Below, piece by piece: positions 16,136-32,160 of a stretch of DNA of 64,000 bases. Made by a program: the position numbers and the translations under genes. Origin of the DNA: an uncultured Sphingomonadales bacterium (GTDB taxonomy: Bacteria > Pseudomonadota > Alphaproteobacteria > Sphingomonadales > Sphingomonadaceae); contig CAXIBD010000009.1 of assembly GCA_964022135.1 (NCBI GenBank), positions 491 to 64,490 on the forward strand. Reading direction: 5' to 3'. The first letter of the stretch is position 1; each line of letters begins with the position of its first letter. The notes under the pieces are model-generated. The model saw only the letters and a list, made by a program, of their open reading frames with translations, did no database searches and was not told the origin of the DNA.

Positions 16136-16165
16136 ACGCGCGCGCGGGCGCGCGAGCGCGCGCGT
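16136..16165. repeat. 30-nt (CG)n-rich palindrome in AT-rich spacer
   Basis: ACGCGCGCGC-GGGCGCGCGA-GCGCGCGCGT. The outer 10-nt arms are perfect reverse complements, and the centre is also CG-alternating. Confidence 0.9.
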
Positions 16166-16323
16166 AAATCGAAGTGAGATAAGCATCAAGTCTTAATGCG
16201 AGGATCCTGTGATTGGAGAGCCTTTTAGTAGGTGTCGGGACTTTATGATCTTGGCCTGCCATAAGTGGCAGGCTAACCCGCTGCGACGCACGATGACAGG
16301 TTCTATAAAGGTAGGAGATGTTC

Positions 16324-17443: not shown

Positions 17444-18286
17444 TTAGAATGAACCATCGGTTTTTTCCAAAATATGCTGAGAAGCGATCATTGCACAACG
17501 AGCGCGCGCGCTCTTGGTCATCTTTGCATCCAATGACGAACCGCGAGGAACCTCAATGCTAACGGGACAATCTGGCGGAAGCGTGTTCAGGAAGCCGATT
17601 GTGTCAAGGCTGCCTTCGCCTGGCAACTGCCTCTCAATTGACGCTTCATATTCCTGCAGTTCTGGCAAGCAGATCATAGGACCGTCACTGAGTTGAGCAT
17701 AGGCGATATACTCGGGTGGAATTGCGGCCAGCTGTTCGAGAGTTCCTCCAGACCGAAACAAATGCAGCAGGTCCACATTGATGCCGGCAACGCCGGCATC
17801 TCCAATGTGCTCTACCAACACTAGCGCATCCTCGATCGTCACAACCTGCGAAGCGGGGTAAAATTCCACCAAAACCTTCAGATTTCTGCAATGCGCATGC
17901 TCACAAAAGCGCGAAAATGTTTCTTGGCGACTTATCGGGTTCCGATCATAAAGCAAAACGTTCACGAGCCGAGATTTCAATTCGGAAGCACAATCAAGAG
18001 CAGGCGTGAGTTCATCAACTAGAGTGCGTTTCGAGATCGTAAATGGATAGGCAATATCAACGCTTAAATTTAGCTGATCCATCCGGTCGATGAATTGCTC
18101 GCGAAGCCCATGGTCTCCTATCAAGTCATAATTCGGCATTTGCGGCAGGACATCCATGGAGTGAAGGAACGGATTGATGGCCGCATAACCAGTTTCAAAG
18201 GCGATTTCCGCCAATTCGACTGGCGTCGCATCGACAAGCGTGATGTGATCAAGTGCAAACTTGCTGGAACTGATTCTATTATGCAA
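17444..18286 (-). CDS. sugar phosphate isomerase/epimerase (xylose-isomerase-like TIM barrel) family protein
   Basis: 280 aa. Alternating beta/alpha pattern with LKVLVEFYP...GINVDLLHLFRSGG typical of the AP_endonuc_2 / TIM-barrel family. Confidence 0.6.
   Translation of the reverse strand: MHNRISSSKFALDHITLVDATPVELAEIAFETGYAAINPFLHSMDVLPQMPNYDLIGDHGLREQFIDRMDQLNLSVDIAYPFTISKRTLVDELTPALDCASELKSRLVNVLLYDRNPISRQETFSRFCEHAHCRNLKVLVEFYPASQVVTIEDALVLVEHIGDAGVAGINVDLLHLFRSGGTLEQLAAIPPEYIAYAQLSDGPMICLPELQEYEASIERQLPGEGSLDTIGFLNTLPPDCPVSIEVPRGSSLDAKMTKSARARCAMIASQHILEKTDGSF
17500..17513. repeat. perfect 14-nt palindrome GAGCGCGCGCGCTC inside a CDS
   Basis: Self-complementary. Shares the 11-mer GAGCGCGCGCG with 16154..16164. 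Confidence 0.9.
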
Positions 18287-18313: not shown

Positions 18314-19210
18314 TCAATTTTCCCCAGCATCTGCCTTATTGGCTGCCGCCATTTTCTTCGCATCCAGTCCGGCAATTGAATTACCAGCAACGAGGTCGTT
18401 TTGCGCATGTGCGAAATGATGCATGTGATATTGAGCGTCCATGGCCGCTCGTTTTCCCCGCAACTCTTCAACATGGTGGACGGCCTGTTTCGTCAGCCAG
18501 TTGCCGAGGCGGGGTTGCGCAACCAGTTTTGCTGCCATTTTTGCTGTTTCCTGGCGCAATTGATCCCGCGCAACAATGCGATTCACCATGCCAAACTGCT
18601 CTGCCCGTTCGGCGCTCATTCTTTCCCCTAACAAGAGAAATTCCATAGCTACTCGCGGCGGTAGTTCAAATGCATGCGCAAAATATTCAACGCCGGGAAT
18701 CCCCATGCGATTGACTGGATCCTGAAAAAATGCGTCTTCCGATGCGACAATCAAATCGCAGACCCAAGCAAGCATCAGGCCTCCTGCAACGCACGCACCC
18801 TGCACCATAGCAATAGTAGGCTTGGGAATATCGCGCCAGCGGCGGCACATGCCGAGATATTGTTCCTGTTCGCGTGTGTAGAGTAATTCTGCAGCGGGCT
18901 TGTTAATATGTGGTGGAACCATCAGGCGATTGTCGAAATGTTTGAGCACATCGCGACCTGGCGTTCCGATATCATGCCCAGCAGAAAAGTGTTTTCCATT
19001 TCCTGCCAGCACGATGCACCGCACCGCATCGTCTTTGGTCGCTTTTTGGAACGCATCGTCCAGCGCATATGTCATCTGTCCGTTTTGTGCATTGTTGAAA
19101 TCGGGACGATTTAGCGTGATCCAAGCAATCTGGTTATCCGTTTCATATAATACAGGGCTCTCGGTTTCATATACGATTCCGACCTTGGCGGGTTCAACGA
19201 GATCATTCAT
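18314..19210 (-). CDS. enoyl-CoA hydratase (crotonase family), paralogue of the EchA20-like gene at 49853
   Basis: 298 aa. IAWITLNRPDFNNAQNGQMTYALDDAF...HFSAGHDIGTPGRD aligns almost residue for residue with the 49853..50752 product. Confidence 0.85.
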   Translation of the reverse strand: MNDLVEPAKVGIVYETESPVLYETDNQIAWITLNRPDFNNAQNGQMTYALDDAFQKATKDDAVRCIVLAGNGKHFSAGHDIGTPGRDVLKHFDNRLMVPPHINKPAAELLYTREQEQYLGMCRRWRDIPKPTIAMVQGACVAGGLMLAWVCDLIVASEDAFFQDPVNRMGIPGVEYFAHAFELPPRVAMEFLLLGERMSAERAEQFGMVNRIVARDQLRQETAKMAAKLVAQPRLGNWLTKQAVHHVEELRGKRAAMDAQYHMHHFAHAQNDLVAGNSIAGLDAKKMAAANKADAGEN

Positions 19211-19325
19211 ATTCGTTCTCCATGCTATTCATTATTAACCATTCAGCTAACCTCGAATCTTCCGCAAATTTCCCGGTAGCCAGGACATAGCCTCTAGCAT
19301 CAATATAGTCACAAAACCAGCCATA

Positions 19326-19355
19326 TACGTATTTTAGATGAGTGATATTTACGCA
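19326..19355. promoter_or_regulatory. dyad operator copy A
   Basis: TACGTATTTTAGATGAGTGATATTTACGCA: CGTA at pos 3-6 and TTACG at pos 24-28. Divergent promoter region between the hydratase (18314..19210) and the flavin-reductase/wHTH gene. Confidence 0.6.
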
Positions 19356-19458
19356 TTATGCGCCCACAATGATATTATAATTGCATATTTCGTATTTTTC
19401 AGGTAGTTTTCGGTTATGGGCGAAAAGCCAATTCCTGCAATCTATGCTGAGGCAAAAA

Positions 19459-20412
19459 ATGACAAATGTTCGACTGGACACTCAGGAATTTCGTAATGCT
19501 CTCGGATCATTTGCAACGGGCGTGACCATCGTCACGACAGCAACAAACCCGACCGAACCTGTAGGAGTGACAGCCAGTAGCTTCAATTCGGTCTCCCTGG
19601 ATCCTCCCTTGGTTCTTTGGTCTCTTGCCAAAAATTCACTGTCGCTTGATGCATTTCGAAATAGCGGTCATTTTGCGGTTCATATCCTGTCCTGCCTCCA
19701 GGAAAACCTTTCCAACGCATTCGCCCGTTCAGGCACCGACAAGTTCGCCAATGTGGATTGGGGATCAGGCGCGATTGGATCGCCTGTGCTGAATGAATTT
19801 GCAGCCAGATTCGAATGCCGGACTGTTCACCAATATGAAGGTGGGGACCATATTATTTTTGTCGGTGAGGTCATCGCCTTCGACAAGCGCGACCACCCTC
19901 CTCTTGTGTTCCATGGTGGAAACTATGCTGAAACTCGGTCAAAAACATTCATTGATGAGGCTCCAACGGTAGAACCGGAACAAGCTCGGTTTACCGAAGA
20001 TTTTTTCCTCTATCTATTGTCGCGCGCGCATTTTCAGACTTCTGAAATTACTCGCACAAAAACAGAAGAGCTTGGCCTCAGTCAAACCGAATATCTAGCG
20101 ATTGCAGTCCTCGGTATGAATGCACCGCTACCTGCCGAAGAGTTGATTGCCCGGTTACAACACACAGGCCATGCGCCAGATGATACCGAAATAGCGAATA
20201 TGATAAGCAAAGGCCTCATACAGGACGCCCAAGGCGCACTTGCTCTAACTCTATCATCGCGCAGCATATTCATTTCGACCCTGTCGGTGGCCAAGGCTTT
20301 CGAGGATGATTTGCTCGATCATTTTACGCCTGGAGAAATTGCAGACACTAAACGCATTCTCAAAAAGATCATCGAGTTGACTGGAGATAATATCCCGAGT
20401 CTCTGGGAATAG
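19459..20412 (+). CDS. fusion protein: flavin reductase-like FMN-binding domain + C-terminal MarR-like winged-helix domain
   Basis: ORF 19381..20412, start preferred at ATG 19459 (GAGG 6-7 nt upstream). N-terminal FRNALGSFATGVTIVTT...GVTASSFNSVSLDPPLVLWSL (HpaC/HsaB-type flavin reductase). C-terminal GLSQTEYLAIAVLGMNAPLPAEELIARLQ...ISKGLI (wHTH-like). Confidence 0.7.
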   Translation: MTNVRLDTQEFRNALGSFATGVTIVTTATNPTEPVGVTASSFNSVSLDPPLVLWSLAKNSLSLDAFRNSGHFAVHILSCLQENLSNAFARSGTDKFANVDWGSGAIGSPVLNEFAARFECRTVHQYEGGDHIIFVGEVIAFDKRDHPPLVFHGGNYAETRSKTFIDEAPTVEPEQARFTEDFFLYLLSRAHFQTSEITRTKTEELGLSQTEYLAIAVLGMNAPLPAEELIARLQHTGHAPDDTEIANMISKGLIQDAQGALALTLSSRSIFISTLSVAKAFEDDLLDHFTPGEIADTKRILKKIIELTGDNIPSLWE

Positions 20413-20507: not shown

Positions 20508-21584
20508 TCAGGCCGCGTCTTCCCATGGGTCACGCGAGGTGCCTTTGGAGATATAATGACCATTCACACGTTTCTGGAAATCGCTTGCCCGCTCGCGTGC
20601 ATTGAAGAACTGCTTGTACCAAATCCTGACTTTATCAAAGGGGCCGTCGCCCTTCACCATCATCGGGCTCAGACACGGCCGCTTATCGGCCCATATTTCA
20701 AAGTCTTGTGCAAAGGCATCTAATCCGGCCTTTTCATATTCGCGTGCAATAGAAATATCTGCCTCAGTTGGCTTTTCGTTGGGGGATTTGACGAGCAAAC
20801 CATACCATACTTTCACCAAACCATCGTCGACTGGCGTATGTGCGATCAGCATATGAGAGGGATAATCGCCCTCCATTGTCGACTGCAGAATTCCGGGGCC
20901 GGTATACCACGTGTCGTTGGTCATCCCCTCCTCCTTGCTGCTCAGTGTGCGATGACCCGCTTTCAAGACCTGCCAACAGACATGATCTTCAAAGCGATTT
21001 TCGAAGATCGCCATATCTTCGCTGCCGTGTACCGGCACCAAATGCCCCTTGTCCGCAATATTGTCGACAATCTCCTGCGGATGACTGTTCAGTTCGCCAA
21101 GCGGCTCAATATTCCATTTGACCCATTGCGAATTGTCATAATTTTCAAAGGCCGGTAAAGCATAATCCGGCTCGCCGCCTTCTTCATCATGCCATATCCA
21201 CAAACAGCCAGCCCTTTCGATAACTTTCCAGTTTTTCAAACAGGCTTTCTTCGGAATCGGGCCGGGAGAATAGGGAATGTCGTTGCATTTGCCATCGGGA
21301 CCAAACCGCCAAGCATGATAGGGGCAACGGATATTGTCACCTTCAACATGACTTTTGTCCTTCACCACGTAAGAAGTCGTGTTTTTGGCCAGATGAGTGC
21401 CCATATGGGGGCAATAGGCTTCGACAAGAAATACACGTCCGCTCTGGCCACGATAGAGCACCATGTCTTCACCAAAATAGCGCACCGCAAGCGGCGTATC
21501 TGTGACCTCGGCAGAGCTCGCGATCATGAACCAACCACGCGGATAGGTATATTCGCCCAATTTGTAATCTGCGGTCGTCGCCAT
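20508..21584 (-). CDS. Rieske [2Fe-2S] non-haem iron oxygenase, KshA-like (3-ketosteroid 9alpha-hydroxylase family)
   Basis: ORF to 21647, trimmed to ATG 21584 (GGAGAG upstream). YPRGWFMIASS N-terminus; Rieske motif CPHMGTHL...CPYHAWRF; iron motif DNIADKGHLVPVH (D-x3-D-x2-H-x4-H). Confidence 0.8.
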   Translation of the reverse strand: MATTADYKLGEYTYPRGWFMIASSAEVTDTPLAVRYFGEDMVLYRGQSGRVFLVEAYCPHMGTHLAKNTTSYVVKDKSHVEGDNIRCPYHAWRFGPDGKCNDIPYSPGPIPKKACLKNWKVIERAGCLWIWHDEEGGEPDYALPAFENYDNSQWVKWNIEPLGELNSHPQEIVDNIADKGHLVPVHGSEDMAIFENRFEDHVCWQVLKAGHRTLSSKEEGMTNDTWYTGPGILQSTMEGDYPSHMLIAHTPVDDGLVKVWYGLLVKSPNEKPTEADISIAREYEKAGLDAFAQDFEIWADKRPCLSPMMVKGDGPFDKVRIWYKQFFNARERASDFQKRVNGHYISKGTSRDPWEDAA

Positions 21585-21689
21585 AGTCTCTCTCCGAGTC
21601 TCGTTCTTATGCGCCCTTTTACATAAATCGTAGAGATTGATCAACACTATTGATAAATTAAACGCCTACCGGCCATATGTTTTGATAAA

Positions 21690-21719
21690 CGCGTAGTTTA
21701 AATATTCATATGCTGCGCA
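21690..21719. promoter_or_regulatory. degenerate dyad operator copy H
   Basis: CGCGTAGTTTAAATATTCATATGCTGCGCA: same spacing, but the right half is CTGCGCA instead of TTACGCA. Upstream of the KshA-like gene 20508..21584. Confidence 0.35.
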
Positions 21720-21730
21720 CCCGGGCTTAG

Positions 21731-22225
21731 CTAAATCTCGAGCGGATGTTCTTCGTCGGTAATTCGTACAACCCGGCCGTTATATTTGACAGTCTGAACG
21801 GCGATGGACGTTTCAACATGATGCACGCCGGGCATTGCCAGAATCTGTTCGGAAGCAGTAGCGTGCAACTGACCAAGCTCGTTGAACAGACAGATCGCGA
21901 ATATATTGAAGCGCCCCAACGTTATCAAAACACCTGTAATACCTGGAATCTTGGACACCTTGCTGGAGATATCTTTCACCTTATCGATATCCGCTTGAAT
22001 ACCAATAAAAGCCAGCTTGTCATCTTTTTGGAGGTCGGGGCTGGTGACTGCAGTGAAGGCGATAAGCCGCTCCTGTTGCAATTTTTTGATCCGACCGCGA
22101 ACGGTTCCTTCGGTGACTCCAAGATCGGTTGCAATCTTACGGTTTGACAGCCGCGCGTCGTCTGACAATATCTCGATTAACTTGTAATCGAGTTCATCCA
22201 ATTCGGGCTTCTCGAACTTATTCAC
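21731..22225 (-). CDS. Lrp/AsnC family transcriptional regulator
   Basis: 164 aa with a GTG start overlapping the upstream stop (GTGA). LDYKLIEILSDDARLSNRKIATDLGVTEGTVRGRIKKL HTH plus a RAM-like C-terminal domain. Confidence 0.85.
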   Translation of the reverse strand: MNKFEKPELDELDYKLIEILSDDARLSNRKIATDLGVTEGTVRGRIKKLQQERLIAFTAVTSPDLQKDDKLAFIGIQADIDKVKDISSKVSKIPGITGVLITLGRFNIFAICLFNELGQLHATASEQILAMPGVHHVETSIAVQTVKYNGRVVRITDEEHPLEI

Positions 22226-22701
22226 GCTGTATCCTTCGTCACAATCGGAGCTACGTCAAATCTGTACTTCACTACATCTACTGCGATTGCCGGCATCATT
22301 GACCCAATGCCGCGAATGGTTGAAATCTTTTCCGAAATGAATGCCTGCAGTTCATCAAAACTTTTAAGTACGACCAATATGTCGATATCATATCGACCGG
22401 TTACCAGGTGAACTGCGAAGACTTCATCCAGTTTCGCCAGCTCCTGGGCAACTTCCGACGCAGCCCGGCTCTCCACTTCAATTGCGATTTCCAATAGGAC
22501 GTCATATCCATGTGCCCGAAAGTCCGACACCGCAACCACCCGGAGTTTATCGGCATTTTCCAGCCGGCGAATTCTTGCTGAAACAGTAGCTGCTGTAAGC
22601 TTAAGTCGATTTGCGATTTGCTGATTGGTCGCACGCCCGTTTCGGCGCAGTTCGCCAATGATGGAACGGTCAATGTCATCTATTTCGAATTTTTCATTCA
22701 T
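22222..22701 (-). CDS. Lrp/AsnC family transcriptional regulator
   Basis: ORF to 22725; MNEKFEIDDIDRSIIGELRRNGRATNQQIANRLKLTAATVSARIRRL. The start is uncertain (22701, 22719 or 22725). Confidence 0.8.
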   Translation of the reverse strand: MNEKFEIDDIDRSIIGELRRNGRATNQQIANRLKLTAATVSARIRRLENADKLRVVAVSDFRAHGYDVLLEIAIEVESRAASEVAQELAKLDEVFAVHLVTGRYDIDILVVLKSFDELQAFISEKISTIRGIGSMMPAIAVDVVKYRFDVAPIVTKDTA

Positions 22702-22817
22702 GCGAAGTCTTTGTTTCATTTTCACTTATGAATCAACTCCACATTGAACAAGAGCATCGGGACGGAAGACCTGGTGCATAGGCAACCGGATTGAATCCAA
22801 GCATCCAGCGAGAATGA

Positions 22818-24098
22818 TCATTCCCCACCGGCAAGTGCGACTCTGTTGGTCTCCAGATGTCGCGCTCCGAGAAGTGTCAACAGCCCGCCGACCATGCCTG
22901 TCGGGATAATAATGGTCAGTGCCCAGCGTAGCGATATGGCATTGTTTCCGAACAATTCACTGAGCGCGCCGGTTGCCCATGGGCCGATGATGAAGCCTAG
23001 AAAAGTGGTAACCATGATGAACAACGCCGTGCTCGTCGCGCGAAACCTGTCCGGAACCAAATATTGCAAGGATTGCATTATGCCTATCGACCAGCCGCCG
23101 CCGAGCAGACCGGCCGGGATCGCAAGCATTTTGGCGACAAATAAGGTATCACTCCAAGTCGAGGCCAGAATGCAGACCGATGCAGCGAGCATCGCCATTC
23201 CTGCCATTAGCAACGGACGCTGCATACCGCCTCTGGCCAGTTTGTCAGATACGGCACCAAAAAGCAGCATCCCTGATAGACCGGCCAAGCCAAAATATAG
23301 CCCAAATGTTGTACTGGCTTCGGTCAAGGGAACTTCATAGACGCGGTGAAACAGGGTCGGCCCCCAAAAGCCGAAACCAACGCCGGACAGGGTTGCCAAA
23401 CCCATGCCGAACATCATCAGTACATAGGATCGTGCCTTGATCAACCGCCGAATGAGCGGCAATAGCGGCACTTGATTCAGTTTTGTCGTTATTTGCAGCC
23501 TCGCTGGCTCTCGGACAATGAGGAAGGCAATACCAGAGATAATCACACCGGGAACAGCCATCGCATAAAATGCCATCCGCCAACTGTAGGCTTCGGCGAT
23601 GGCAGGCCCTGCCGCATAGCCGGTTATCTGGCCAAAATAGACAGCAAGACCCAATATCGCAAAGACCATCCCACGTTTCTCTGGCCGAAAATAGTCCGAC
23701 AACAGCGAATAGGCAGGCGCAATAAAGGCTGCCTCTCCAACACCGACACCAAGCCTGGCCAGCGCCAACATCCAAGGTCCATTTGCTGCACCTGAAAGTC
23801 CAGTGAACAAACTCCAAATCAAACAACCGACACAGATAATCACAATGCGGGAAGATCTGTCGGCAAGACGTGCTATAGGTATTGCGATTGTGGTGTATAA
23901 CAAGGCAAACGCAGGCCCCATGAGAAGCCCCATAAACTGGTCTCCCACCCCAAATTCAGCCTTGATCGGATCGACAAGGCCAGAGATCAGGTATCGATCT
24001 GCGTAATTGAAAATATAAATGAAAAGCAGGACAATGAGAACGACCCACGGGTTGGACTTTCGCCCTGTTACTGCCGAAGCGGCTATAGTTGCGGCCAT
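22818..24098 (-). CDS. MFS transporter
   Basis: 426 aa, 12 predicted helices, MFS loop motif LADRSSR between TM2 and TM3. Confidence 0.85.
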   Translation of the reverse strand: MAATIAASAVTGRKSNPWVVLIVLLFIYIFNYADRYLISGLVDPIKAEFGVGDQFMGLLMGPAFALLYTTIAIPIARLADRSSRIVIICVGCLIWSLFTGLSGAANGPWMLALARLGVGVGEAAFIAPAYSLLSDYFRPEKRGMVFAILGLAVYFGQITGYAAGPAIAEAYSWRMAFYAMAVPGVIISGIAFLIVREPARLQITTKLNQVPLLPLIRRLIKARSYVLMMFGMGLATLSGVGFGFWGPTLFHRVYEVPLTEASTTFGLYFGLAGLSGMLLFGAVSDKLARGGMQRPLLMAGMAMLAASVCILASTWSDTLFVAKMLAIPAGLLGGGWSIGIMQSLQYLVPDRFRATSTALFIMVTTFLGFIIGPWATGALSELFGNNAISLRWALTIIIPTGMVGGLLTLLGARHLETNRVALAGGE

Positions 24099-24142
24099 GT
24101 ATTATCCTTGCCCGTTAAGTTTACAAAATGCAGCCATGACAA

Positions 24143-24904
24143 TCAGTCGCGCATTTGTGTGCCGCCATTTACGTGATAAACTTGCCCGTTGATCCAAGCG
24201 CCGTCATCCGACGCCAACATCGCCACCATCGCTGCGATATCATCGGGCTGCCCCAAGCGAACGTGTGGAACCGCCTTCAAACCCGATTCAACCTGCTGAT
24301 CGGTCATATGCTGCTGGACTGCCTCGGTCAGGACAAGGCCCGGACAAATGACATTCGCCCGGATACCTTTCTTGCCCCATTTGGCTGCGACATGGCGGGA
24401 CAACGCATGTACGGCATTTTTGGCCATCGGATACGCGACTTGCCAAGAAGAACCTCCCGATGCCGCACCGGAACTGGTATAAATCATCGCTCCGCCGCCA
24501 TTTTCCAGCATCACAGGAAGCGCGGCCTGCGTCGCAATCAAATGGCTTTTTGCATTGATCGCGACGGATTTGTCGAACACATCCAGCGAACAATCCAGCG
24601 CATTCACATCACCTACTGTCCCGCCGGCCAAGTTGGAATGAAAGAAATCAAGAGCGCCGAATTCTGAAACCGCCTTGTCTACAATAGCCTGCTGCGATTC
24701 CACTGACGTTCCATCCAGATGAACACCGACAGCGCTTCCGCCTCTGCTTCTAATATCCGCAGCGACGTCTTTGGCCCAATCTTCCATGATGTCTCCGATG
24801 ACGACATGGGCACCTTCTTCCGCCAAACGTCGAGCAGTGGCAGCACCGATTCCCCGCCCGCCACCTGCAACAATCCCCACTTTTCCTTTAAGTCCGCGCA
24901 TCAT
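24143..24904 (-). CDS. SDR family oxidoreductase (candidate hydroxysteroid dehydrogenase)
   Basis: GKVGIVAGGGRGIGAATARRL cofactor motif and Y-x3-K (YPMAK). Confidence 0.8.
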   Translation of the reverse strand: MMRGLKGKVGIVAGGGRGIGAATARRLAEEGAHVVIGDIMEDWAKDVAADIRSRGGSAVGVHLDGTSVESQQAIVDKAVSEFGALDFFHSNLAGGTVGDVNALDCSLDVFDKSVAINAKSHLIATQAALPVMLENGGGAMIYTSSGAASGGSSWQVAYPMAKNAVHALSRHVAAKWGKKGIRANVICPGLVLTEAVQQHMTDQQVESGLKAVPHVRLGQPDDIAAMVAMLASDDGAWINGQVYHVNGGTQMRD

Positions 24905-24930
24905 CTCTTCTCCCTAACCCCGCAGGCGTC

Positions 24931-26460
24931 TCAGCGTCGCCGTGCCGCGAGAGACATATTGTTCCACCAAGGCTGTGCCGTTTCGACCTGCGAAGCCAAT
25001 CGGAACAATGTCGCTTCAGCACCATATCGACCGCTCATCATCACCCCGATTGGCAGCCCGCTTTCAGACATGGCAAGTGGCAGCGACATGCTGGGCTGCC
25101 CGGTAATATTGTAAAGGCCCGTAAACGGCGTGAATTGGGAGACTGCTTCACCCCATTGCCTCATGTTTTCATGGTCCAGATCGTGGATGCCGGTTTTTGG
25201 CGGCGGAGTGGCCAGAGTGGGGGACAGAATTATATCGTAATCCTGCATGAATATCGCCATATCATAAGCCGTCTGCTGGAATATGTTATGCGCCCGGGAA
25301 ACCGACATGCCATCCATTTTTTTGCCAATTCCATAGAATACCATAGTGACCTTTTCTAGCACATCCGCTGATGGCGCTATCCCGGTGATCTTGGCTCGAT
25401 CATCAATATCGGCGGCGAGGGAGGTCGATAGCACCGCAAAATTCGCTTCTCCAATAGCGGCCATATCGACTTTGGGTTGCGCTTCCTCGACATGATGTCC
25501 CAGATCTTCGAGCAGTTTAGCTGCCGCTCGGGTCGCCATGATACATTCCGGGTCGACAGGACTGCCAGCTGGCGGCGCAAGCACTAGGGCTACGCGCAAT
25601 TTGCCTGGCGACTTGTTTAGCTGAGACATGAACGAACCGTCCGGGGATGGCGCAGAATAGCGTGACCCTGGCTCCAGGCCATGGGTTAGGTCCAGCAGAA
25701 GCGCTGAATCTCGGACGGATCGCGTAACGGCATGATGGACGGACATCCCGCCCCAGCCTTCGGTGCGATTGGGGCCCATGGGCACACGCCCGCGGCTGGG
25801 CTTTAGACCGAACAATCCGCAGCAAGAAGCCGGGATACGGATGGAGCCACCGCCGTCGGTCGCATGAGCCGCAGGGATGATGCCGGCCGCCACTGCCGCG
25901 GCCGAGCCGCCGCTTGATCCACCTGCAATGTGCTTCTCATTCCAAGGATTGCGTGTAACGCCAGTTGCGAGCGATTCTGTTGTACCGCTGAGACCGAATT
26001 CCGGCGTTGTCGTTTTGCCGAAAATCACTAAGCCTGCAGCCTGATGTCGCTTCACCAGCTCAGACGTTACGGTCGCCCGATAGCCATTGTATGATCGACT
26101 GCCCTGCCCCGTTCGTTCACCGGCTATATGCGTGTGAAGATCCTTGATTAGCCAAGGCACGCCTTTCAGAGGGCCGTCTGGCAAGCCGTTTTTTATTGCA
26201 GCGCGACCATATTCATACAGCTTCTGTGCGATAAAGTTATAGCTTGGGTTTGCCAATTCAGTCCGGGCGATAGACATTTCCAGAAGCTCTTCGGCCGAAA
26301 CCTGTCGCTTACGTACAAGATCAGCCAAACCGGTTGCGTCATGCGTATCGAGCAAGATCTCTCTATTAATCCTAGGGTTTGCCATCAGCCGACCTGCTGA
26401 TGTAGCAAGTCCCGCAGCGGCAACGCTGCTTGCCAGAACCGAACGACGGGTCATGTTCAC
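24931..26460 (-). CDS. amidase (amidase-signature family) with twin-arginine signal peptide
   Basis: MNMTRRSVLASSVAAAGLATSAG; AS block GGSSGGSAAAVAAG; the start overlaps the upstream stop (ATGA at 26457-60). Confidence 0.85.
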   Translation of the reverse strand: MNMTRRSVLASSVAAAGLATSAGRLMANPRINREILLDTHDATGLADLVRKRQVSAEELLEMSIARTELANPSYNFIAQKLYEYGRAAIKNGLPDGPLKGVPWLIKDLHTHIAGERTGQGSRSYNGYRATVTSELVKRHQAAGLVIFGKTTTPEFGLSGTTESLATGVTRNPWNEKHIAGGSSGGSAAAVAAGIIPAAHATDGGGSIRIPASCCGLFGLKPSRGRVPMGPNRTEGWGGMSVHHAVTRSVRDSALLLDLTHGLEPGSRYSAPSPDGSFMSQLNKSPGKLRVALVLAPPAGSPVDPECIMATRAAAKLLEDLGHHVEEAQPKVDMAAIGEANFAVLSTSLAADIDDRAKITGIAPSADVLEKVTMVFYGIGKKMDGMSVSRAHNIFQQTAYDMAIFMQDYDIILSPTLATPPPKTGIHDLDHENMRQWGEAVSQFTPFTGLYNITGQPSMSLPLAMSESGLPIGVMMSGRYGAEATLFRLASQVETAQPWWNNMSLAARRR

Positions 26461-27599
26461 GCTTTCACCTTTGTCTTGCCCAGCGAAGCAATATTCTCGG
26501 CGACGGCTTTGTCTGCATAGTATCGCGAATAGAATTTTCGGAACTTCGGTATCGGGCCGTCACCATCACAAATCAGGGGTGTGACTTCGAATTTCATCCG
26601 GTCCCAGACAACCTTGTCCTGATCAAGCTGCTTGTTCACATCTTTGATGATTGCTCTTGCCAATCCTGCCATCGGCCCTTCTATCTGGCTCTTTGGCTGG
26701 GTATAAAAATATCGGACTTGCAGCTTATCGAGTTCAACAGGTGTGATGCAGGCAATCAGCAATGTCTCGCAAATGCCTTCAAACCGCACCCAGTTTTGGC
26801 CAGGGCCTTGCGAGGTAGACGTAATCTTTCCATCAATTTCGCCTTTCGGCGTCCCCATTTTTGCTCGTACAATGCCCTTGCGGTCCCACTCACCCCATTC
26901 CAGTTCCGACTCGGGTGGGCTGGCGACACCGTGGATGTAGGTGAAATGCGGAAAGTCGACGCCATTTTCAGCCATGTTCTGTATGCTACCAAAAATCGTC
27001 CAGTCACATTCGTCAAATTCCGACCATTGCGGATCAGTAGCTTCGGGCAACGGGATCACATCATATTTCGGTTGCTCGCCATGGGGATGATACCATGCCC
27101 AAATTATCCGATTAGCTTCCTGAATTGGCCAAGTTTCCTTGCATTTGCGCTTCACCTGCGGCGGGATGACGCGCGCATAGGGGATTTCTTTGACCACGCC
27201 CTCGTTGCCATCGTAGCGCCACGCGTGAAACGGACATTCGAGGAGATTTCCGTGAACTTTCCCACCATGGCCCATATGGGCCCCCAAATGCTTGCAGTAG
27301 GCATCTATCATCCGCACTTCGCCATCTTCACCCCGCCAAATGGCAAGATCCTGAGCAAAATAGCGGGCCGGTTGGACTTCTCCGACGGCCAACTCATCGC
27401 TCAGCATGATCGGATACCAACCAAAAGGAAATCCGATATCGAGATTGCGCTCCTCCGAAGATGGCCGACCAGGAAGATCGGCGACCCGCCAAGCTTCAAG
27501 CTCTTCCCTCGTCATTTTGTTTAGCACTTGTGATGTCGCAACCGGGGCCGTGCGCGCGTCTTTCACAGCAGCGCCAACATGAGATGCACTGGCAGTCAT
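26457..27599 (-). CDS. Rieske [2Fe-2S] non-haem iron oxygenase, KshA-like, second paralogue
   Basis: CKHLGAHM...CPFHAWRY; iron motif ENGVDFPHFTYIH; overlaps both neighbours by 4 nt. Confidence 0.8.
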   Translation of the reverse strand: MTASASHVGAAVKDARTAPVATSQVLNKMTREELEAWRVADLPGRPSSEERNLDIGFPFGWYPIMLSDELAVGEVQPARYFAQDLAIWRGEDGEVRMIDAYCKHLGAHMGHGGKVHGNLLECPFHAWRYDGNEGVVKEIPYARVIPPQVKRKCKETWPIQEANRIIWAWYHPHGEQPKYDVIPLPEATDPQWSEFDECDWTIFGSIQNMAENGVDFPHFTYIHGVASPPESELEWGEWDRKGIVRAKMGTPKGEIDGKITSTSQGPGQNWVRFEGICETLLIACITPVELDKLQVRYFYTQPKSQIEGPMAGLARAIIKDVNKQLDQDKVVWDRMKFEVTPLICDGDGPIPKFRKFYSRYYADKAVAENIASLGKTKVKA

Positions 27600-28474
27600 T
27601 TTGAATCTCCTAGTTTGAAAACTTTCATCGCATTTTCACGCAAAAATTTGGGCCAAACTCCGTCTTTCAATGGAACGCTTTCCATATCGGAAAAAATACG
27701 ATCAAGACTCAGGCCCATAGGAAAATATCCGGCGTAAATTATCTTGTCTGCACCGCGCGTATTGGCGTAGTTGATAATCGCTCTGGGATAATGTTTCGGG
27801 GCGAATGCGCTGGTTGAATAATAGAGATTTGGCCATTTCAGCATAAGCTTCACCGCCAGGTCTTCCCACGGTTCTGCGCCATGCCGCATAACCACTTTCA
27901 GATCGGGAAAGAACCAGCAAATCTCATCGAGATGTTCGACCTTCTGCGTTTCCATAGGAATGCGCGGTCCCGGGATACCGACGTTGAGCAGAATGGGAAT
28001 ATCCAGCTCCACTGCGCAGGCATAAAGCGGGAACATGTATTTGTGATTGATCGGAACCTGCGGGCACGTTCCTGCGGGAAAAACACTGATCGCGCTCAGC
28101 CCCACCTCGGCATGCGCTTGCTTGATCCTCCGCACTTCGTCCATACCGTTATTGGGATTGCACGGCATGTCGAAGAAAAAGCGGCCAGGATATTGCTCTT
28201 TGGCTCTACGTGACGTGTCATTGTCGTTCCAGCCGACGAGCGCATATTCGATATTGAACCTGTCCATCTGTCCGACCGTCCATTTGACAAAATCATCCGC
28301 CTCTCCGGTCTCTGGGATATCCTTGAACATATATTGTGCGGGCATTTTAAACATTTCGCGGCTTTGCTCATCCTTGAGCAGCGGCTTGAAGCTCTCATAC
28401 CAGTCAGACCGGTCCTCAGCTTCGGGGATGCCTAGCATGCAATCGACAATTTTTATATCTTTGGGATAGCCCAT
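27596..28474 (-). CDS. amidohydrolase_2 (ACMSD/LigW-like) family protein, atypical N-terminal metal motif
   Basis: 292 aa. Where the family normally has I-D-x-H-x-H, this protein reads KIVDCMLGIP. Later His/Asp blocks (VMRHGAEPW, YAGYFP) look family-like. Confidence 0.6.
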   Translation of the reverse strand: MGYPKDIKIVDCMLGIPEAEDRSDWYESFKPLLKDEQSREMFKMPAQYMFKDIPETGEADDFVKWTVGQMDRFNIEYALVGWNDNDTSRRAKEQYPGRFFFDMPCNPNNGMDEVRRIKQAHAEVGLSAISVFPAGTCPQVPINHKYMFPLYACAVELDIPILLNVGIPGPRIPMETQKVEHLDEICWFFPDLKVVMRHGAEPWEDLAVKLMLKWPNLYYSTSAFAPKHYPRAIINYANTRGADKIIYAGYFPMGLSLDRIFSDMESVPLKDGVWPKFLRENAMKVFKLGDSK

Positions 28475-30123
28475 TATCTAGCTCCAGAAATTTGCGGCCA
28501 TCTCGCCCGCAGTTCGTTTTTATCTACTTTTCCGACATCGTTGCGCGGCAGCGGTTCGTCCAGAAACGCGACGTGACCGGGTGCCTTATATTTGGCCAGA
28601 TTTTCGCCCACGGTTTTGATAATATCGGATTCGCTATAATCACCGCGTTGCACAACCACGGCGACGAGCAGCTCGCCCAATCGTTTATCAGGAATTCCAA
28701 AAGCTGCGCATTCGCTGATATCATCCATCGCTCCGATGATCCGCTCAACCTCGGCACAGTAGATATTTTCGCCGCCGGAGATCACCATGTCTTTCTTCCG
28801 ATCGACAATGAAGACATAGCCCTCGTCATCGACATATCCGACATCCCCGGTTTTAAGCCAACCATCGGGAGACAATATCTTGTCGGTCTCTTCCTTGTTG
28901 TTCCAGTAGCCCTTCATCACGACAGGTCCTCGGACGACAATTTCGCCCGCTTCGCCGGGCAGCAATTCCTCGCCATCCGGACCTTCTATGCGCATGTCCA
29001 CCAGAGACAGGACCCGGCCGGCGGCCGCGCGGTTGCGGATAAAATCTTCACCGACAGCCATGGACACACTGCCGGATGTTTCGGTCATTCCGTAACCGGT
29101 TCCCATTACTGCCCCGGGGCACGCCGCACGGATATCATCCAGAAGAGCCACAGGCAGCGCCTGCCCGCCCGAAGCTATGTTGCGCAGACTGCTAAGGTCC
29201 GCGCCGGTTTCGCGCGCGCCATTCAGCATATCCCACATCATTGTCGGCACACCCGAGAACGCCGTAATTCGTTCACTCTCGATCAAACGTGTCGCATCGG
29301 CCGCATTCCAGCGCCGCATCATGACCAGTTTCGAGCCTGCACAAAGCGGCGACAAAAACGACGCGCCCAGTCCGGAAATATGAAACAATGGACTGATGAG
29401 CAACGCCGCCTGTTGCGGCAGATTAGCCAGTATCTGTTCAACCGGGATGTTCAGCTTGGCCGCCGTGTCATGCAAAACCATCATGCCGGTCATTTGCACA
29501 CTCATCAGGCCATTGATGAGATTGCGATGGGTCAAAACAGCGCCTTTAACTTGTCCGGTGGTGCCCGACGTAAACAATATCGTGCAAGGATCGTCCGGCT
29601 TTGCTGATTCGAAGTCAGTTAGGGTCGCGCCGCTTGTAGGAAACTCGCCAGTTTCCAATATCTGGCCTGCAAACCCCCCACGGCGCAGCAAGGCAGCGCG
29701 CTCTGGATCGGCGAGAACCAGCCGGGGCGAAACGCCCTCTATGGCCGCGCAGAGCTCTTCAGGCGAACCACGGCTATTAATGAGTGCCGACACGCCATTT
29801 GCCCTTGCAACGGCGAGGAATGCCACCATCCACTCGATGCGGTTGCGCATGCAGATCGCAACGCGATCCCCACGATCGACCTCAAGTGCAGGAACCAATG
29901 CATCTCGCAAAGCAAAAAACTGGTTGAATGTCAGCCGGCGGTCGCCTTCCACGACAAAAACCTTGTCGCCATGGCGCCGGGCAGTTTCCGCGAGCAAATT
30001 GACATCGGCCGGGGCGTTCACAAATTGACGCATGCCGCCTTGCTCACTAATTTCGAACGGCGTACCAGGCGCCGTCAGGGCATCATATATCGGATCAATT
30101 ATTGTCACGTGACAGCGCTCCAT
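28474..30123 (-). CDS. acyl-CoA synthetase (AMP-forming; candidate steroid/bile-acid CoA ligase)
   Basis: ORF to 30192; start probably ATG 30123 (MERCHVTIID). AMP motif ILFTSGTTGQVKGAVLTH, plus GYGMTE and SGGENIY. Confidence 0.8.
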   Translation of the reverse strand: MERCHVTIIDPIYDALTAPGTPFEISEQGGMRQFVNAPADVNLLAETARRHGDKVFVVEGDRRLTFNQFFALRDALVPALEVDRGDRVAICMRNRIEWMVAFLAVARANGVSALINSRGSPEELCAAIEGVSPRLVLADPERAALLRRGGFAGQILETGEFPTSGATLTDFESAKPDDPCTILFTSGTTGQVKGAVLTHRNLINGLMSVQMTGMMVLHDTAAKLNIPVEQILANLPQQAALLISPLFHISGLGASFLSPLCAGSKLVMMRRWNAADATRLIESERITAFSGVPTMMWDMLNGARETGADLSSLRNIASGGQALPVALLDDIRAACPGAVMGTGYGMTETSGSVSMAVGEDFIRNRAAAGRVLSLVDMRIEGPDGEELLPGEAGEIVVRGPVVMKGYWNNKEETDKILSPDGWLKTGDVGYVDDEGYVFIVDRKKDMVISGGENIYCAEVERIIGAMDDISECAAFGIPDKRLGELLVAVVVQRGDYSESDIIKTVGENLAKYKAPGHVAFLDEPLPRNDVGKVDKNELRARWPQISGAR

Positions 30124-30276
30124 CTGGAATTTTCCGTCACAACCGAAGGATAGGATCGAATCGACAAAGAATGCGATTCGCAGCGGCAGCATATTGACCC
30201 AGAACTTTGGATTTGCGTGTTCATAATCCTCCTAAAGATAAGTTCCGGGTGCATTAACACCTCAAATATCACCATA

Positions 30277-30306
30277 TGCGTATTTTTATATCATATATTT
30301 TACGAA
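30277..30306. promoter_or_regulatory. dyad operator copy B
   Basis: TGCGTATTTTTATATCATATATTTTACGAA, about 155 nt upstream of the CoA-ligase operon start. Confidence 0.6.
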
Positions 30307-30351
30307 TATAGCAAGCCCATAGCTGCCCCATCGTCAAATTTGACAAATTTC

Positions 30352-31224
30352 TCAATAAACGGCCGCCGGATTCGGCTCATTGGGGCTTCCCAGCATCTCG
30401 CGATAGGACGGTCGGTCGTTTCCGCGATCGTCAACCCCAAGATCCTTGGCAACTTCCGCCGCGATCAAGGTGCGCCCGGATAGCGCCGCCCCTTTGGGAT
30501 TGGTCGCAAGGGCATGAACAATATACCCGGTGAACTCTGGGTTTTCGGCGGTTTCGATAAAGCCTTCATATTGCTCCGGATTGGTTTCTGCGGCAATTTT
30601 TGATCGCTCGGTGATTAGCGGTCCCATCCAGATGGAAGCAATGCGGACCCCGGTATCGCGCAGATCAAATTCCATGTCATGGGCAAATTTATCCAACCCG
30701 GCCTTTTGAGCGCCATAAGCCGGGCCATGCATGTAACAACTCGCACCGAAGGACGAACCGAATGCAATCATGCCGGAACCTTGCTTTACCATCATCCTGG
30801 CAGCGTGCCAGCTAGCCACGTAGGCGGACCGCAAACCGACATCGAGAATGTTGACGGCAGCGATTTCTTTCTCCCAGAACGGTTTTTTCTCGATCAGCTG
30901 ATGGTGAATGAAGGCTGCGTTATTGACTAGAATATCCAGACACCCCTGTTCTTCTTCGATCTGCCTGAACAGCTGCTCTACTTGCATGTCATCGGCATGA
31001 TCACACATCACCGGAATACCCTTGCCGCCGGCCTTCGTGATCGCATCGGCGGTTTCACTGACCGTTCCCGGCAAAACAGTCCCGTCCCAGCCTTTTGCAT
31101 CGCCCGGCGTTATAGTTCTTCCGGTAACATATACTGTCATCCCCTTTTCACCGAGACCGCGCGCAATTCCTGCGCCTGCGCCCCGGCTGGCGCCAGTCAC
31201 CAATGCAATTTTAGGTTCAGTCAT
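30352..31224 (-). CDS. SDR family oxidoreductase
   Basis: IALVTGASRGAGAGIARGL; 290 aa. Confidence 0.8.
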   Translation of the reverse strand: MTEPKIALVTGASRGAGAGIARGLGEKGMTVYVTGRTITPGDAKGWDGTVLPGTVSETADAITKAGGKGIPVMCDHADDMQVEQLFRQIEEEQGCLDILVNNAAFIHHQLIEKKPFWEKEIAAVNILDVGLRSAYVASWHAARMMVKQGSGMIAFGSSFGASCYMHGPAYGAQKAGLDKFAHDMEFDLRDTGVRIASIWMGPLITERSKIAAETNPEQYEGFIETAENPEFTGYIVHALATNPKGAALSGRTLIAAEVAKDLGVDDRGNDRPSYREMLGSPNEPNPAAVY

Positions 31225-31280: not shown

Positions 31281-32045
31281 TTAATCAAAATTGGCCTGCC
31301 CACCATCGAGCGGGATCGTGGCACCGGTCAGATAGCGCATTGCGGGGGAACAAAGCGCCACGACCGCTTCCCCGATATCACCCTCCAATGTCCCTATGCG
31401 GCCCAAAGGTATGGTTCTGAAAAATTCCTCCGCTTCTTTCGGATTCTTCTCAACCCAGCCTTTCAGACCCGGCGATTCCGCATGTGGTGCGATATTCAAT
31501 ACCCGGATATTCTCACTGCCCCATTCGGCAGCGGCGGCTCTGGTAAGCGACTGGATTGATCGCTTCACGGCTGCATAGGCACCGTAGCCTGTCATGTCCC
31601 ACCGCTTCATCGCGGAAGAAACCAGGTTGACGATCACACCACCGCCCTGCTCCACCAGATGCGGCTTCACCAGCTTCATTAATCGCAAAGTGGCGAGCGG
31701 ACCTGATTCAAAGCCTGCGACAAATTGTTCGTCGCTAACCTGCTCCAAGGTACCCATCGGAACCTCTTGGGCATTATTTATGAGTATATCTATCTGACCG
31801 AAATGCTCGATTGCTTCTGCGATCAAGGCGGCAATAGAATCAGCGGATTTGACATCACAGGCGATGCAATGAGCGTGACCCGATCCGCGCGCGTCGATCA
31901 TTGCCTTGGTCACTTCGAGTTTGCCGAAGGTGCGTCCGGCAAGAATTACTCCACAGCCGACGGCGGCGAAGGCCAGTGCAATGCCTTGCCCGATACCCTG
32001 CCCCGCGCCCGTAACTATGACGACTCGCTTTTCAAACTGATTCAT
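31281..32045 (-). CDS. SDR family oxidoreductase
   Basis: VVIVTGAGQGIGQGIALAF; YAAVK catalytic pair. Confidence 0.8.
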   Translation of the reverse strand: MNQFEKRVVIVTGAGQGIGQGIALAFAAVGCGVILAGRTFGKLEVTKAMIDARGSGHAHCIACDVKSADSIAALIAEAIEHFGQIDILINNAQEVPMGTLEQVSDEQFVAGFESGPLATLRLMKLVKPHLVEQGGGVIVNLVSSAMKRWDMTGYGAYAAVKRSIQSLTRAAAAEWGSENIRVLNIAPHAESPGLKGWVEKNPKEAEEFFRTIPLGRIGTLEGDIGEAVVALCSPAMRYLTGATIPLDGGQANFD

Positions 32046-32061
32046 CGTAGAATATCCTATA

Positions 32062-32091
32062 TTCGTAATATTTATTACCTATATTTACGCA
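32062..32091. promoter_or_regulatory. dyad operator copy C
   Basis: TTCGTAATATTTATTACCTATATTTACGCA, in the divergent promoter region between the SDR (31281..32045) and the OYE gene (32161). Confidence 0.65.
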
Positions 32092-32160
32092 TGCTATTGA
32101 CATATAGCATATAGATGCGTCAATTGCGTTATATAAAAATATGCACAGGAGAGCGATCCA

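Follow-up and report, generated by a model that had tools for sequence, protein, structure and literature searches.

A Parasphingorhabdus candidate for the sphingomonad bile-salt side-chain cluster, with a PF04909 protein lacking canonical metal ligands in its conserved core

Our comparative analysis of a 64,000-nt stretch of DNA from an uncultured Sphingomonadales bacterium (contig CAXIBD010000009.1; hereafter the window) indicates that nine co-directional minus-strand genes at 20508-30123, or up to 30192 if an alternative ligase start is used, are very probably the Parasphingorhabdus orthologue of a sphingomonad bile-salt cluster, cluster 2 of Sphingobium sp. Chol11. As defined by sequence comparison, the conserved core of the system is a CoA ligase, an amidohydrolase-fold protein of family PF04909 (AH2) and a KshA-like Rieske non-haem-iron oxygenase (R1). 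Gene calls at 20508-30192 combine an open reading frame list with Pfam and NCBIfam scans of the window. The favoured reading as a whole, which joins orthology with the bile-salt cluster to membership in a steroid regulon and to the pathway proposed below, appears likely to us.

Large quantities of bile salts, of which sphingomonads are major degraders, are excreted by vertebrates, and the removal of the C5 side chain without the usual hydratase/aldolase/thiolase set has been an open question since 2017-2021. The cluster itself was already published in 2021, and its unresolved step is under study. What is new here is comparative: the core is defined, the amidase emerges as an accessory, the acyl-CoA dehydrogenase (ACAD) is relocated, an operator is found to be common to steroid genes, and the PF04909 protein proves to be ligand-less. 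These results extend the range of the system to a marine genus and sharpen an existing question; they open no new one.

Identity and conservation of the cluster

The preliminary description of this DNA had pointed to a side-chain cluster of the Chol11 type, a suggestion borne out by published gene order and by orthologous clusters in N. aromaticivorans F199 and Sphingobium sp. TomMM15. Cluster 2 of Chol11 (nov2c218-232) encodes the ligase SclA, the ACAD Nov2c221/222, a major facilitator superfamily (MFS) transporter (Nov2c225), hydroxysteroid dehydrogenase candidates Nov2c226/231, the twin-arginine (Tat)-exported amidase Bsa (Nov2c227), the Rieske protein Nov2c228, an 'amidase' (Nov2c229) and a TonB-dependent receptor (Nov2c232) (Feller et al. 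2021; bioRxiv 10.1101/2021.05.19.444901). Ibero et al. 2026 (PMC12882949) report two contiguous Lrp/AsnC genes in the same cluster, and their Table S3 lists the locus tags of sclA (RS15895), nov2c228 (RS15885), the Lrp genes (RS15865/15860) and scd4B/A (RS15855/15850), all within NCHOL11_RS15850-15895; the PF04909 gene would be RS15890. The window reproduces the spacing of these tags: ligase, one gene, Rieske, three genes, Lrp, Lrp. Judged by published order, the two loci share an SDR (short-chain dehydrogenase/reductase), an SclA-type ligase, a PF04909 protein, a Rieske oxygenase, a Tat amidase, a further SDR, an MFS transporter and two Lrp/AsnC regulators, together with the same open question of cleavage chemistry. 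They differ in that Scd4BA and two hotdog proteins follow the Lrp pair in Chol11, whereas a second KshA-like Rieske oxygenase (R2) takes that place in the window, where the ring-degradation operon, 27 kb off, houses the Scd4-type ACAD pair, the block begins with an additional SDR (S3) and the TonB-dependent receptor stands apart.

Comparison with the sphingomonad clusters, Chol11 by published gene order and F199 and TomMM15 by sequence, gave the same order throughout. In TomMM15, genes for an ACAD pair and two hotdog proteins come after the Lrp pair, matching Chol11 numbering. The ligase, Rieske oxygenase and amidase named for such clusters are present in the operon, but the ACAD is not. The PF04909 protein, MFS transporter and Lrp pair, previously taken for extra components, are standard parts of the cluster in Chol11, F199, TomMM15 and other loci, so that the operon contains no extra components of this kind.

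R1 has matches at 142 genome loci, nearly all of them in Sphingomonadales, and is 99% identical to a protein from a Parasphingorhabdus metagenome-assembled genome (MAG) and 86% identical to that of Parasphingorhabdus sp. JC815. AH2 has a 100%-identical match, P0001; exact-sequence look-ups of R1 and of P0001 turned up no contig on record. Synteny was counted over the best 80 genome loci and adjacency over loci with enough flank. Across these 80 loci the block S3-S2-ligase-AH2-R1-amidase-S1-MFS-Lrp-Lrp-R2 is widely conserved in Sphingomonadales; Sphingopyxis lindanitolerans has a gene order identical to that of the window, and the order of the cluster is found also in F199 and about 70 other Sphingomonadales genomes. 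Conservation centres on the ligase-AH2-R1 order, which is shared with F199, TomMM15, Sphingomonas and Sphingopyxis: AH2 and R1 are immediate neighbours, AH2 being the upstream one, at 67 of 75 loci, and at 61 of 68 the ligase is found upstream of AH2. The remaining genes are syntenic less often (S1 at 45 loci, S2 at 44 with a median identity of 77%, S2 and S3 at 39-44, the MFS transporter at 33, Lrp regulator A at 32 and R2 after the Lrp pair at 27). AH2 has the operon's highest median identity to related loci, 81% (70 loci); R1 reaches 69% and the ligase 62%. Identities range from 59 to 81% with F199 plasmid pNL2 (ligase 59%, AH2 77%, R1 67%, amidase 65%, Lrp pair 58-62%) and from 61 to 84% with TomMM15 (ligase 61%, AH2 80%, R1 66%, amidase 65%, Lrp pair 57-58%).

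Published data connect these orthologues with bile salts. F199 carries the cluster and grows on bile salts via Delta4,6 intermediates, and Nov2c228, Nov2c229 and Nov2c225 are more abundant in bile-salt-grown Chol11 (Feller et al. 2021). Induction of the cluster specific to bile salts is seen in the Chol11 proteome and in RNA-seq of Caenibius (Novosphingobium) tardaugens (bioRxiv 10.1101/2021.05.19.444901; PMC12882949). The bsd I cluster of C. tardaugens (EGO55_16295-16335) resembles the window operon in pairing an amidohydrolase with an adjacent Nov2c228-type Rieske protein and in containing an SclA-type ligase, and on cholate versus testosterone the amidohydrolase is ~21-fold up and the Rieske gene changes with a log2FC of 3.24 (PMC12882949). 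It differs in carrying TetR instead of the Lrp pair, an ACAD pair between Rieske and ligase genes, and a MaoC hydratase and an alpha/beta hydrolase, with no exported amidase in the cluster.

An operon devoted mainly to some other steroid or isoprenoid acid or to amide conjugates (fish and invertebrate bile acids and alcohols, or sterol-derived acids), and not to mammalian C24 bile salts, would be in keeping with the marine habitat of Parasphingorhabdus, with nearest relatives that are MAGs and with identities of only 59-80% to the experimentally studied clusters. The ligase, moreover, scores 364 bits against the NCBIfam CasG steroid-24-oyl-CoA synthetase model and does not reach its equivalog cut-off of 750, and orthologous clusters reside on plasmids of tomato-root Sphingobium strains that a paper, in its title, ties to steroidal glycoalkaloid catabolism. 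We nevertheless consider this explanation unlikely. Gene order and content are the same as in the cholate- and deoxycholate-responsive clusters of Chol11 and C. tardaugens, the SnoaL_4 (Hsh2-type) and 9,10-seco/HIP genes alongside fit Delta4,6 bile-salt degradation, and no difference in side-chain chemistry would be expected between one C24 steroid acid and another.

The amidase was a further point of the earlier account, which had an acyl-CoA synthetase, a KshA-type Rieske oxygenase and an amidase in one operon, an assignment on which Pfam and NCBIfam agree. Its N-terminus carries a twin-arginine motif (TRRSVL) and its Lys/cis-Ser/Ser amidase signature is complete (IKD at 105, GGSSGG at 180, GGSIRIP at 204); it is 65% identical to the F199 and TomMM15 amidases, which occupy the same position next to the Rieske gene. 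Bsa, its Chol11 counterpart, is a Tat-exported periplasmic bile-salt deconjugase whose activity has been demonstrated (Feller et al. 2021), and correspondence to Bsa means that the amidase needs no part in C-C cleavage. Of the 71 loci compared, 47 carry an amidase gene downstream of R1 and 24 have none, and the gene is missing from the closest cultured relative, JC815. Its absence from a third of loci, together with the known function of Bsa, places it outside the unexplained chemistry, and we regard it as a candidate Bsa-type deconjugase that would act as an optional front-end accessory.

The amidase is also one reason to entertain a non-steroid operon for aromatic or aliphatic amides, for instance nylon-oligomer or aryl-acylamide substrates, given that its best solved relatives are 6-aminohexanoate-cyclic-dimer hydrolase (288 bits) and an aryl acylamidase, that one public annotation of an orthologue is named accordingly, and that the best PDB matches of the ligase are feruloyl- and fatty-acyl-CoA synthetases. 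Such an operon is very improbable: a third of loci do without the amidase, R1 and R2 both match KshA first, the genes sit in a steroid 9,10-seco/HIP gene set with a common operator, and their orthologues have steroid activity or bile-salt induction in the literature.

AH2 and the two Rieske oxygenases

AH2 is predicted to adopt the (beta/alpha)8 amidohydrolase fold (AlphaFold pLDDT 90.9), and Foldseek relates the model with a probability of 1.0 to 3IRS, LigW, gamma-resorcylate decarboxylase (gamma-RSD) and ACMSD at TM-scores of about 0.65-0.70. Its sole close solved relative is the uncharacterised protein BB4693 (3IRS), matched at 1e-14 with the single sequence and at 5e-38 with a family profile. 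The nearest characterised structural neighbours are the C-C decarboxylases LigW, gamma-RSD and ACMSD, and the family profile also reaches the hydratase LigJ, the C-C hydrolase LigY and, weakly, the dinuclear oxygenase SfbO. For the PF04909 (COG2159) enzymes that share this fold (LigW, gamma-RSD, ACMSD, LigJ, LigY and the lactonase LigI) the known chemistry is C-C cleavage, hydration and lactone hydrolysis, not amide hydrolysis. Published labels for the Nov2c229-type protein are amidase or amidohydrolase, with conjugate hydrolysis as the guessed function; when produced in E. coli, Nov2c229 cleaved neither glyco- nor taurocholate (Feller et al. 2021). A literature search combining PF04909 with steroid returned no relevant report.

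The active site of AH2 departs from that of its relatives. Conserved residues were placed by the DSSP strand limits of the predicted model. Strand 1 reads D11-C-M-L-G (D-x-M-x-G), with no histidine before residue 121, so that the canonical D/E-x-H-x-H motif is missing; Asn164 aligns with the strand-5 histidine of LigW and Tyr250 with its strand-8 aspartate. Of the ligands sought (His/Glu-x-His on strand 1, His on strand 5, Asp on strand 8) none is in place, the strand-6 histidine alone being retained, and of the residues compared with the PF04909 enzymes only Asp11 and His198 are kept. With the metal ligands missing, an assignment as a classical metal-dependent decarboxylase or hydratase was rejected, and AH2 is therefore not filed in the ACMSD, LigW, gamma-RSD or LigJ classes. 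Asp11, Asp183 and Trp203 do not vary across 34 relatives down to 31% identity, and almost the same holds for His198, the only conserved one of the five histidines of AH2.

Because a PF04909 gene adjoins a Rieske gene in the amidohydrolase-related dinuclear oxygenases (AROs; AibH1H2, SfbO, PtmU3) as it does here, this class was considered as well. AROs bind two metals through three histidines and three carboxylates, and their partner is a small Rieske ferredoxin of <250 aa (PMC10811679). AH2, in contrast, has one conserved histidine and its neighbour R1 is a full 380-aa oxygenase with an iron site of its own; the profile match to SfbO (8SM6) is weak and partial (E 9e-8). Ligand content and partner type rule out an ARO.

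AH2 relatives of 41-65% identity adjoin genes for ACADs, CoA ligases, family-III CoA transferases and a P450, and in one high-GC lineage such a relative lies beside a KshA-like Rieske gene. These neighbours suggest CoA-thioester catabolism coupled to oxygenases, and the uncharacterised BB4693-like clade appears, from its gene neighbourhoods, to be linked to acyl-CoA catabolism. The loci in question (L085, L086/L087 and L090; proteins P0130, P0151, P0170, P0183, P0184, P0202 and P0240) are mostly high-GC metagenomic sequences with frameshifted gene calls.

Both Rieske oxygenases have the features of KshA, the oxygenase component of 3-ketosteroid 9alpha-hydroxylase: a Rieske motif (C102-x-H...C-x-x-H in R1; at C58 in R2), an iron motif (D215-x-x-H-x4-H in R1; D-x2-H-x4-H at D178 in R2) and a KshA_C domain (84 and 201 bits, respectively), and KshA is the best PDB match of each (129 bits for R1, 164 for R2). 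The two are only 25% identical to one another. R2 is nearer to genuine KshA, as its KshA_C score shows, and is probably a KshA-type 3-ketosteroid 9alpha-hydroxylase. R1, by comparison, is a distant KshA paralogue whose Chol11 counterpart hydroxylates elsewhere than C9: Nov2c228 acts on HOCDA at a position other than C3, 6, 7, 9 or 12.

Proposed side-chain removal and its alternatives

Canonical routes of steroid side-chain degradation (Scd1AB/Shy1/Sal1/Sad and a second cycle in P. stutzeri Chol1; ChsE/ChsH/Ltp2 and Cas in actinobacteria) also start with a steroid-acid CoA ligase, and in them, as in the sphingomonad system, a Delta22 enoyl-CoA is formed by an ACAD of heteromeric alpha2beta2 type. 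The window operon differs from them in having a Rieske oxygenase and a PF04909 protein in place of a MaoC/crotonase hydratase, an Ltp2/Sal aldolase, a thiolase and an aldehyde dehydrogenase. Lack of the thiolase or aldolase and heteromeric hydratase had been remarked on before, and domain scans found no thiolase, aldolase or MaoC hydratase within the operon and no ACAD between 20508 and 32045.

In the pathway that we propose, the exported amidase would strip glycine or taurine in the periplasm, as shown for Bsa, and the TonB-dependent receptor and MFS transporter would import the steroid acid or move intermediates. SDRs would oxidise ring hydroxyls, the ligase would form the C24 CoA thioester, as shown for SclA, and a heteromeric ACAD would set the Delta22 double bond, as shown for Scd4AB; the candidate here is the pair at 56748-58993. 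R1 would then hydroxylate the steroid acid, most likely at C17 (hydroxylation has been shown for Nov2c228). AH2, we infer, would carry out a vinylogous retro-aldol cleavage of the C17-C20 bond in the 17-hydroxy-Delta22-enoyl-CoA, to yield a 17-ketosteroid and a C5 acyl-CoA, pentenoyl-CoA, fit for ordinary beta-oxidation. Alternatively, the chain could be lost in two steps, C2 and then C3. Ring B would be opened through the action of R2 as a KshA-type 9alpha-hydroxylase.

AH2 is a candidate catalyst on account of its C-C-lyase/hydratase fold and its translational coupling to the ligase and R1. The specific chemistry, C17 hydroxylation by R1 followed by C-C cleavage by AH2, is put forward tentatively, and that AH2, with an Asp11/His198-type site instead of a metal, forms with R1 an undescribed C5 side-chain cleavage system (17-hydroxyl, retro-aldol, pentenoyl-CoA) we hold to be rather unlikely. 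The remark that no mechanism has been described for a Rieske oxygenase and an amidohydrolase-type enzyme in side-chain removal stands as far as the chemistry is concerned, which is still termed largely unknown in the 2025-2026 literature (PMC12882949 among others), but Rieske hydroxylation, possibly at C17, and removal of the whole C5 unit had already been published as speculation, with Nov2c229 named as the sole remaining conserved candidate.

Several observations weigh against this pathway. Every canonical PF04909 metal ligand that was checked in AH2 is replaced, and to judge by its residues AH2 may not be a lyase. A second PF04909 paralogue accompanies several of its relatives, as in heteromeric AibH1H2, a pairing that hints at a non-catalytic partner role. 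The window contains no KshB-type reductase; according to the literature, sphingomonads lack a clear KshB (bioRxiv 10.1101/2021.05.19.444901 among the sources). The ACAD pair lies inside the ring-degradation operon, beside SDR, MaoC, ketosteroid isomerase (KSI) and FadD3 genes, and the best matches of Chol11 Scd4BA in C. tardaugens, EGO55_13765/13770 (66% and 78%), occupy the same ring-operon setting and are not cholate-induced (PMC12882949). Finally, the authors of the C. tardaugens study favour a conventional hydratase/aldolase route with genes located elsewhere (PMC12882949).

The last point leads to the main alternative, that the operon is a bile-salt cluster in which neither R1 nor AH2 cleaves the side chain. 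The work would be done by beta-oxidation and aldolase enzymes encoded elsewhere (MaoC/crotonase hydratases, an Ltp2/Sal aldolase, thiolases), the hydroxyl introduced by R1 would be facilitating or detoxifying, and AH2 would hydrolyse some other bond (an ester, lactone, thioester or non-glycine/taurine conjugate) or serve as a non-catalytic partner of R1. AH2 without canonical catalytic and metal residues, relatives often paired with a second PF04909 protein, and an AH2 stop codon that overlaps the R1 start would all agree with this; the window does carry three enoyl-CoA hydratase (ECH) genes, a MaoC gene and a thiolase gene, and for C. tardaugens Shy/Sal-type steps and a hydrolytic amidohydrolase have been proposed (PMC12882949). 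However, it is in the HIP (ring C/D) operon that the hydratases and thiolase of the window lie. In the genomes of Chol11, F199 and C. tardaugens, Feller et al. could identify neither a side-chain hydratase, aldolase or thiolase candidate nor a second ACAD (acting on the C3 chain), and deletion in C. tardaugens of the igr-like operon left growth on cholate unaffected. The failure of Nov2c229 to hydrolyse glyco- or taurocholate speaks against a deconjugating AH2. That AH2 is the most conserved protein of the operon, with its Asp11/Asp183/His198/Trp203 set, fits a constrained active site, and would fit a tight interaction surface too. On balance we rate this alternative as less likely than not.

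Returning to the Delta22 dehydrogenation that the proposed pathway includes, cluster-flanking pairs of Sphingobium, Novosphingobium and Sphingomonas match the two ACADs at 56748-58993 with 65% and 74-87% identity, and these cluster-flanking matches are the best among the 5-6 places on pNL2 and pTomMM15a that encode ACADs. The pair also shows weak similarity to NCBIfam IpdE2. In Chol11 scd4A is essential, and Scd4AB can be replaced by a Delta22 ACAD; in C. tardaugens the ACAD pair of bsd I is more distant from Scd4BA and is cholate-induced (PMC12882949). By sequence the window pair is of the Scd4 type; a ring role is the more natural reading of its position and of the expression data for C. tardaugens, and because of this conflict we list it as a candidate only.

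Side-chain cleavage by AH2, should it occur, would be a reaction new to the amidohydrolase superfamily, and the R1/AH2 route, if real, would be a third way to remove a steroid side chain beside the thiolytic and aldolytic ones. A solved step would add an enzyme class and could make C19 steroid synthons accessible from bile acids in a short enzymatic sequence.

Regulation, gene organization and surroundings

An operator copy had been placed ahead of the operon, and a palindrome, ATGCGTAT-N16-TTACGAAT, is indeed located at 30276-30307 ('copy B'), 153 nt upstream of the ligase ATG. The window contains six instances of the motif ATnCGTAW-N16-WTACGnAT where 0.48 would be expected, and none of 100 shuffles reached six. 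All six operator-like copies are intergenic and lie in promoter-type regions of steroid genes, which ties the operon to the steroid regulon of the window; 23 of 88 related loci contain the pattern in exactly this form. It is quite likely that the operon is part of a larger steroid regulon marked by this common palindrome. N16 is the correct spacing, the N18-spacer form of the motif matching at chance level. Copy B overlaps a promoter-like stretch, TTGCTA-N18-TATAAA; a consensus promoter scan gave fewer matches than shuffles, and this stretch is not among them. The Lrp pair is a candidate regulator for the shared palindrome. In related genomes the motif precedes S3, the ligase, R2 or an SDR-ACAD operon, and it is present also in loci without any Lrp gene within the fetched range.

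The tight packing noted for these minus-strand genes, with overlaps of 1-4 nt, was confirmed for the nine genes, as all four overlaps can be read in the sequence. Ligase and AH2 overlap by 1 nt (TAATG at 28474) and AH2 and R1 by 4 nt (ATGA at 27596-99), so that these three genes are adjacent and co-directional; GTGA junctions are found at 26457-60 and 22222-25, and the remaining intergenic gaps measure 26, 44, 92 and 146 nt. Homologues back the ligase start at 30123 over that at 30192, and the likely start of R2 is the ATG at 21584, which is preceded by GGAGAG. Downstream of R2 a strong intrinsic terminator ends the unit. With S2 and S3 on the same strand upstream, behind a second operator copy, the transcription unit may be longer than 20508-30123 and comprise perhaps 11 genes. 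Coordinates are collected in Table 1. Rfam and tRNA scans of the whole window gave no matches.

Table 1. Features of the operon and of the surrounding steroid region (window coordinates)
Feature	Coordinates	Strand	Basis or remark
CoA ligase (AMP-binding), SclA-type steroid-24-oyl-CoA ligase candidate	28474-30123, alternative start 30192	-	Pfam AMP-binding, 262 bits
AH2, PF04909 (Amidohydro_2) TIM-barrel protein, Nov2c229 / EGO55_16305 type	27596-28474	-	Pfam
R1, KshA-like Rieske non-haem-iron oxygenase, Nov2c228 type	26457-27599	-	Pfam Rieske and KshA_C
Tat-exported amidase-signature enzyme, Bsa (Nov2c227)-type bile-salt amidase candidate	24931-26460	-	Pfam Amidase, 303 bits
SDR S1, hydroxysteroid-dehydrogenase candidate, Nov2c226 position	24143-24904	-	Pfam adh_short_C2
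MFS transporter, Nov2c225 position	22818-24098	-	Pfam MFS_1, 150 bits
Lrp/AsnC regulator A	22222-22725	-	Pfam; stop overlaps start of regulator B
Lrp/AsnC regulator B	21731-22225	-	Pfam
R2, second KshA-like Rieske oxygenase	20508-21584, alternative start 21647	-	Pfam Rieske and KshA_C
Intrinsic terminator after R2	20472-20443	-	13-bp stem and T-run; strong
SDR S2, Nov2c231 position, upstream of ligase	30352-31224	-	Domain scan and synteny
SDR S3, first gene of co-directional block	31281-32045	-	Behind operator copy 32061-32092
Operator-like copies	19325-19356, 30276-30307, 32061-32092, 36647-36678, 40029-40060, 46355-46386		Motif scan
Heteromeric ACAD pair (356 aa and 392 aa), Scd4BA-type Delta22 dehydrogenase candidate	56748-57818, 57815-58993	+	Sequence identity
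ECH genes	18314-19210, 49853-50752, 51838-52590		Domain scan
MaoC gene	59777-60232		Domain scan
Thiolase	54707-55858		Domain scan
SnoaL_4 (NTF2-like) genes	35921-36565, 39055-39525, 39522-40016, 40813-41298		Domain scan

Ahead of the ligase, an upstream open reading frame (uORF) of 39 codons (MNTQIQSSGSICCRCESH...) extends over 30105-30224 on the minus strand, following an AGGAGG Shine-Dalgarno sequence and ending 15 nt into the ligase gene. Parasphingorhabdus sp. JC815 has a 15-codon uORF (MKAKINSFDSRGKML) whose TGA overlaps the ligase GTG. The uORF is weakly conserved and could be a leader peptide or a device for translational coupling. At many loci of the Novosphingobium type (L011-L017, L031, from Novosphingobium and related genomes) a second AMP-binding ligase gene is situated directly upstream of the SclA-type ligase, about 1.5 kb upstream; the corresponding stretch of the window is just an intergenic region of 228 nt that carries the operator. 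Among the SDRs, S1 scores 163-179 bits against NCBIfam 7alpha-hydroxysteroid dehydrogenase models, under their cut-offs.

The operon sits within a steroid catabolic region that takes up ~16-64 kb of the window. This region contains KstD-like flavoproteins, four SnoaL_4 genes, a TonB-dependent receptor (36694-39054), an extradiol dioxygenase and a meta-cleavage set of hydrolase, hydratase, acetaldehyde dehydrogenase and aldolase. It further contains a CoA transferase, crotonases, an NMO-type reductase, two heteromeric ACAD pairs, thiolase, MaoC and KSI genes, IpdAB/IpdC-like genes and one ligase above the FadD3 NCBIfam equivalog cut-off. The SnoaL_4 genes are candidates for Hsh2/Hsh3-type 7-hydroxysteroid dehydratases, a marker of the Delta4,6 variant; the product of that at 35921-36565 has 64% identity to an NTF2-family protein of the F199 cluster.

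Convergent with R2, and sharing a terminator region with it, is a plus-strand flavin reductase gene (19381-20412) with a long C-terminal extension, which lies behind an operator copy. Its product resembles the p-hydroxyphenylacetate hydroxylase reductase (HpaC; 222 bits, below cut-off) and HsaB. Considered as a possible electron donor for the Rieske oxygenases, it is syntenic in only 3 of 80 loci. The crotonase gene at 18314-19210 and a xylose-isomerase-like TIM-barrel gene at 17444-18286, both on the minus strand, stand at the edge of the low-GC block and have no counterpart in the 80 loci. In F199 an unrelated 'TIM barrel protein' is encoded next to the ligase.

G+C content is about 0.60-0.63 at 1-16000 and 0.48-0.57 in the rest of the window, and a run rich in (GC)n, GCGCGCGCGGGCGCGCGAGCGCGCGCG (16138-16164), lies at the junction. 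The high-GC block (1-16317) has genes for three beta-lactamase-fold proteins, a TonB receptor, a POT transporter, an MR_MLE epimerase, a DUF1611 protein, a helix-turn-helix (HTH)-cupin regulator and a GntR regulator, and may be a foreign island for the utilisation of peptides or D-amino acids. An HTH-cupin and beta-lactamase/Peptidase_M15 pair similar to that of the high-GC block is found upstream of the Sphingomonas cluster (L081/L082).

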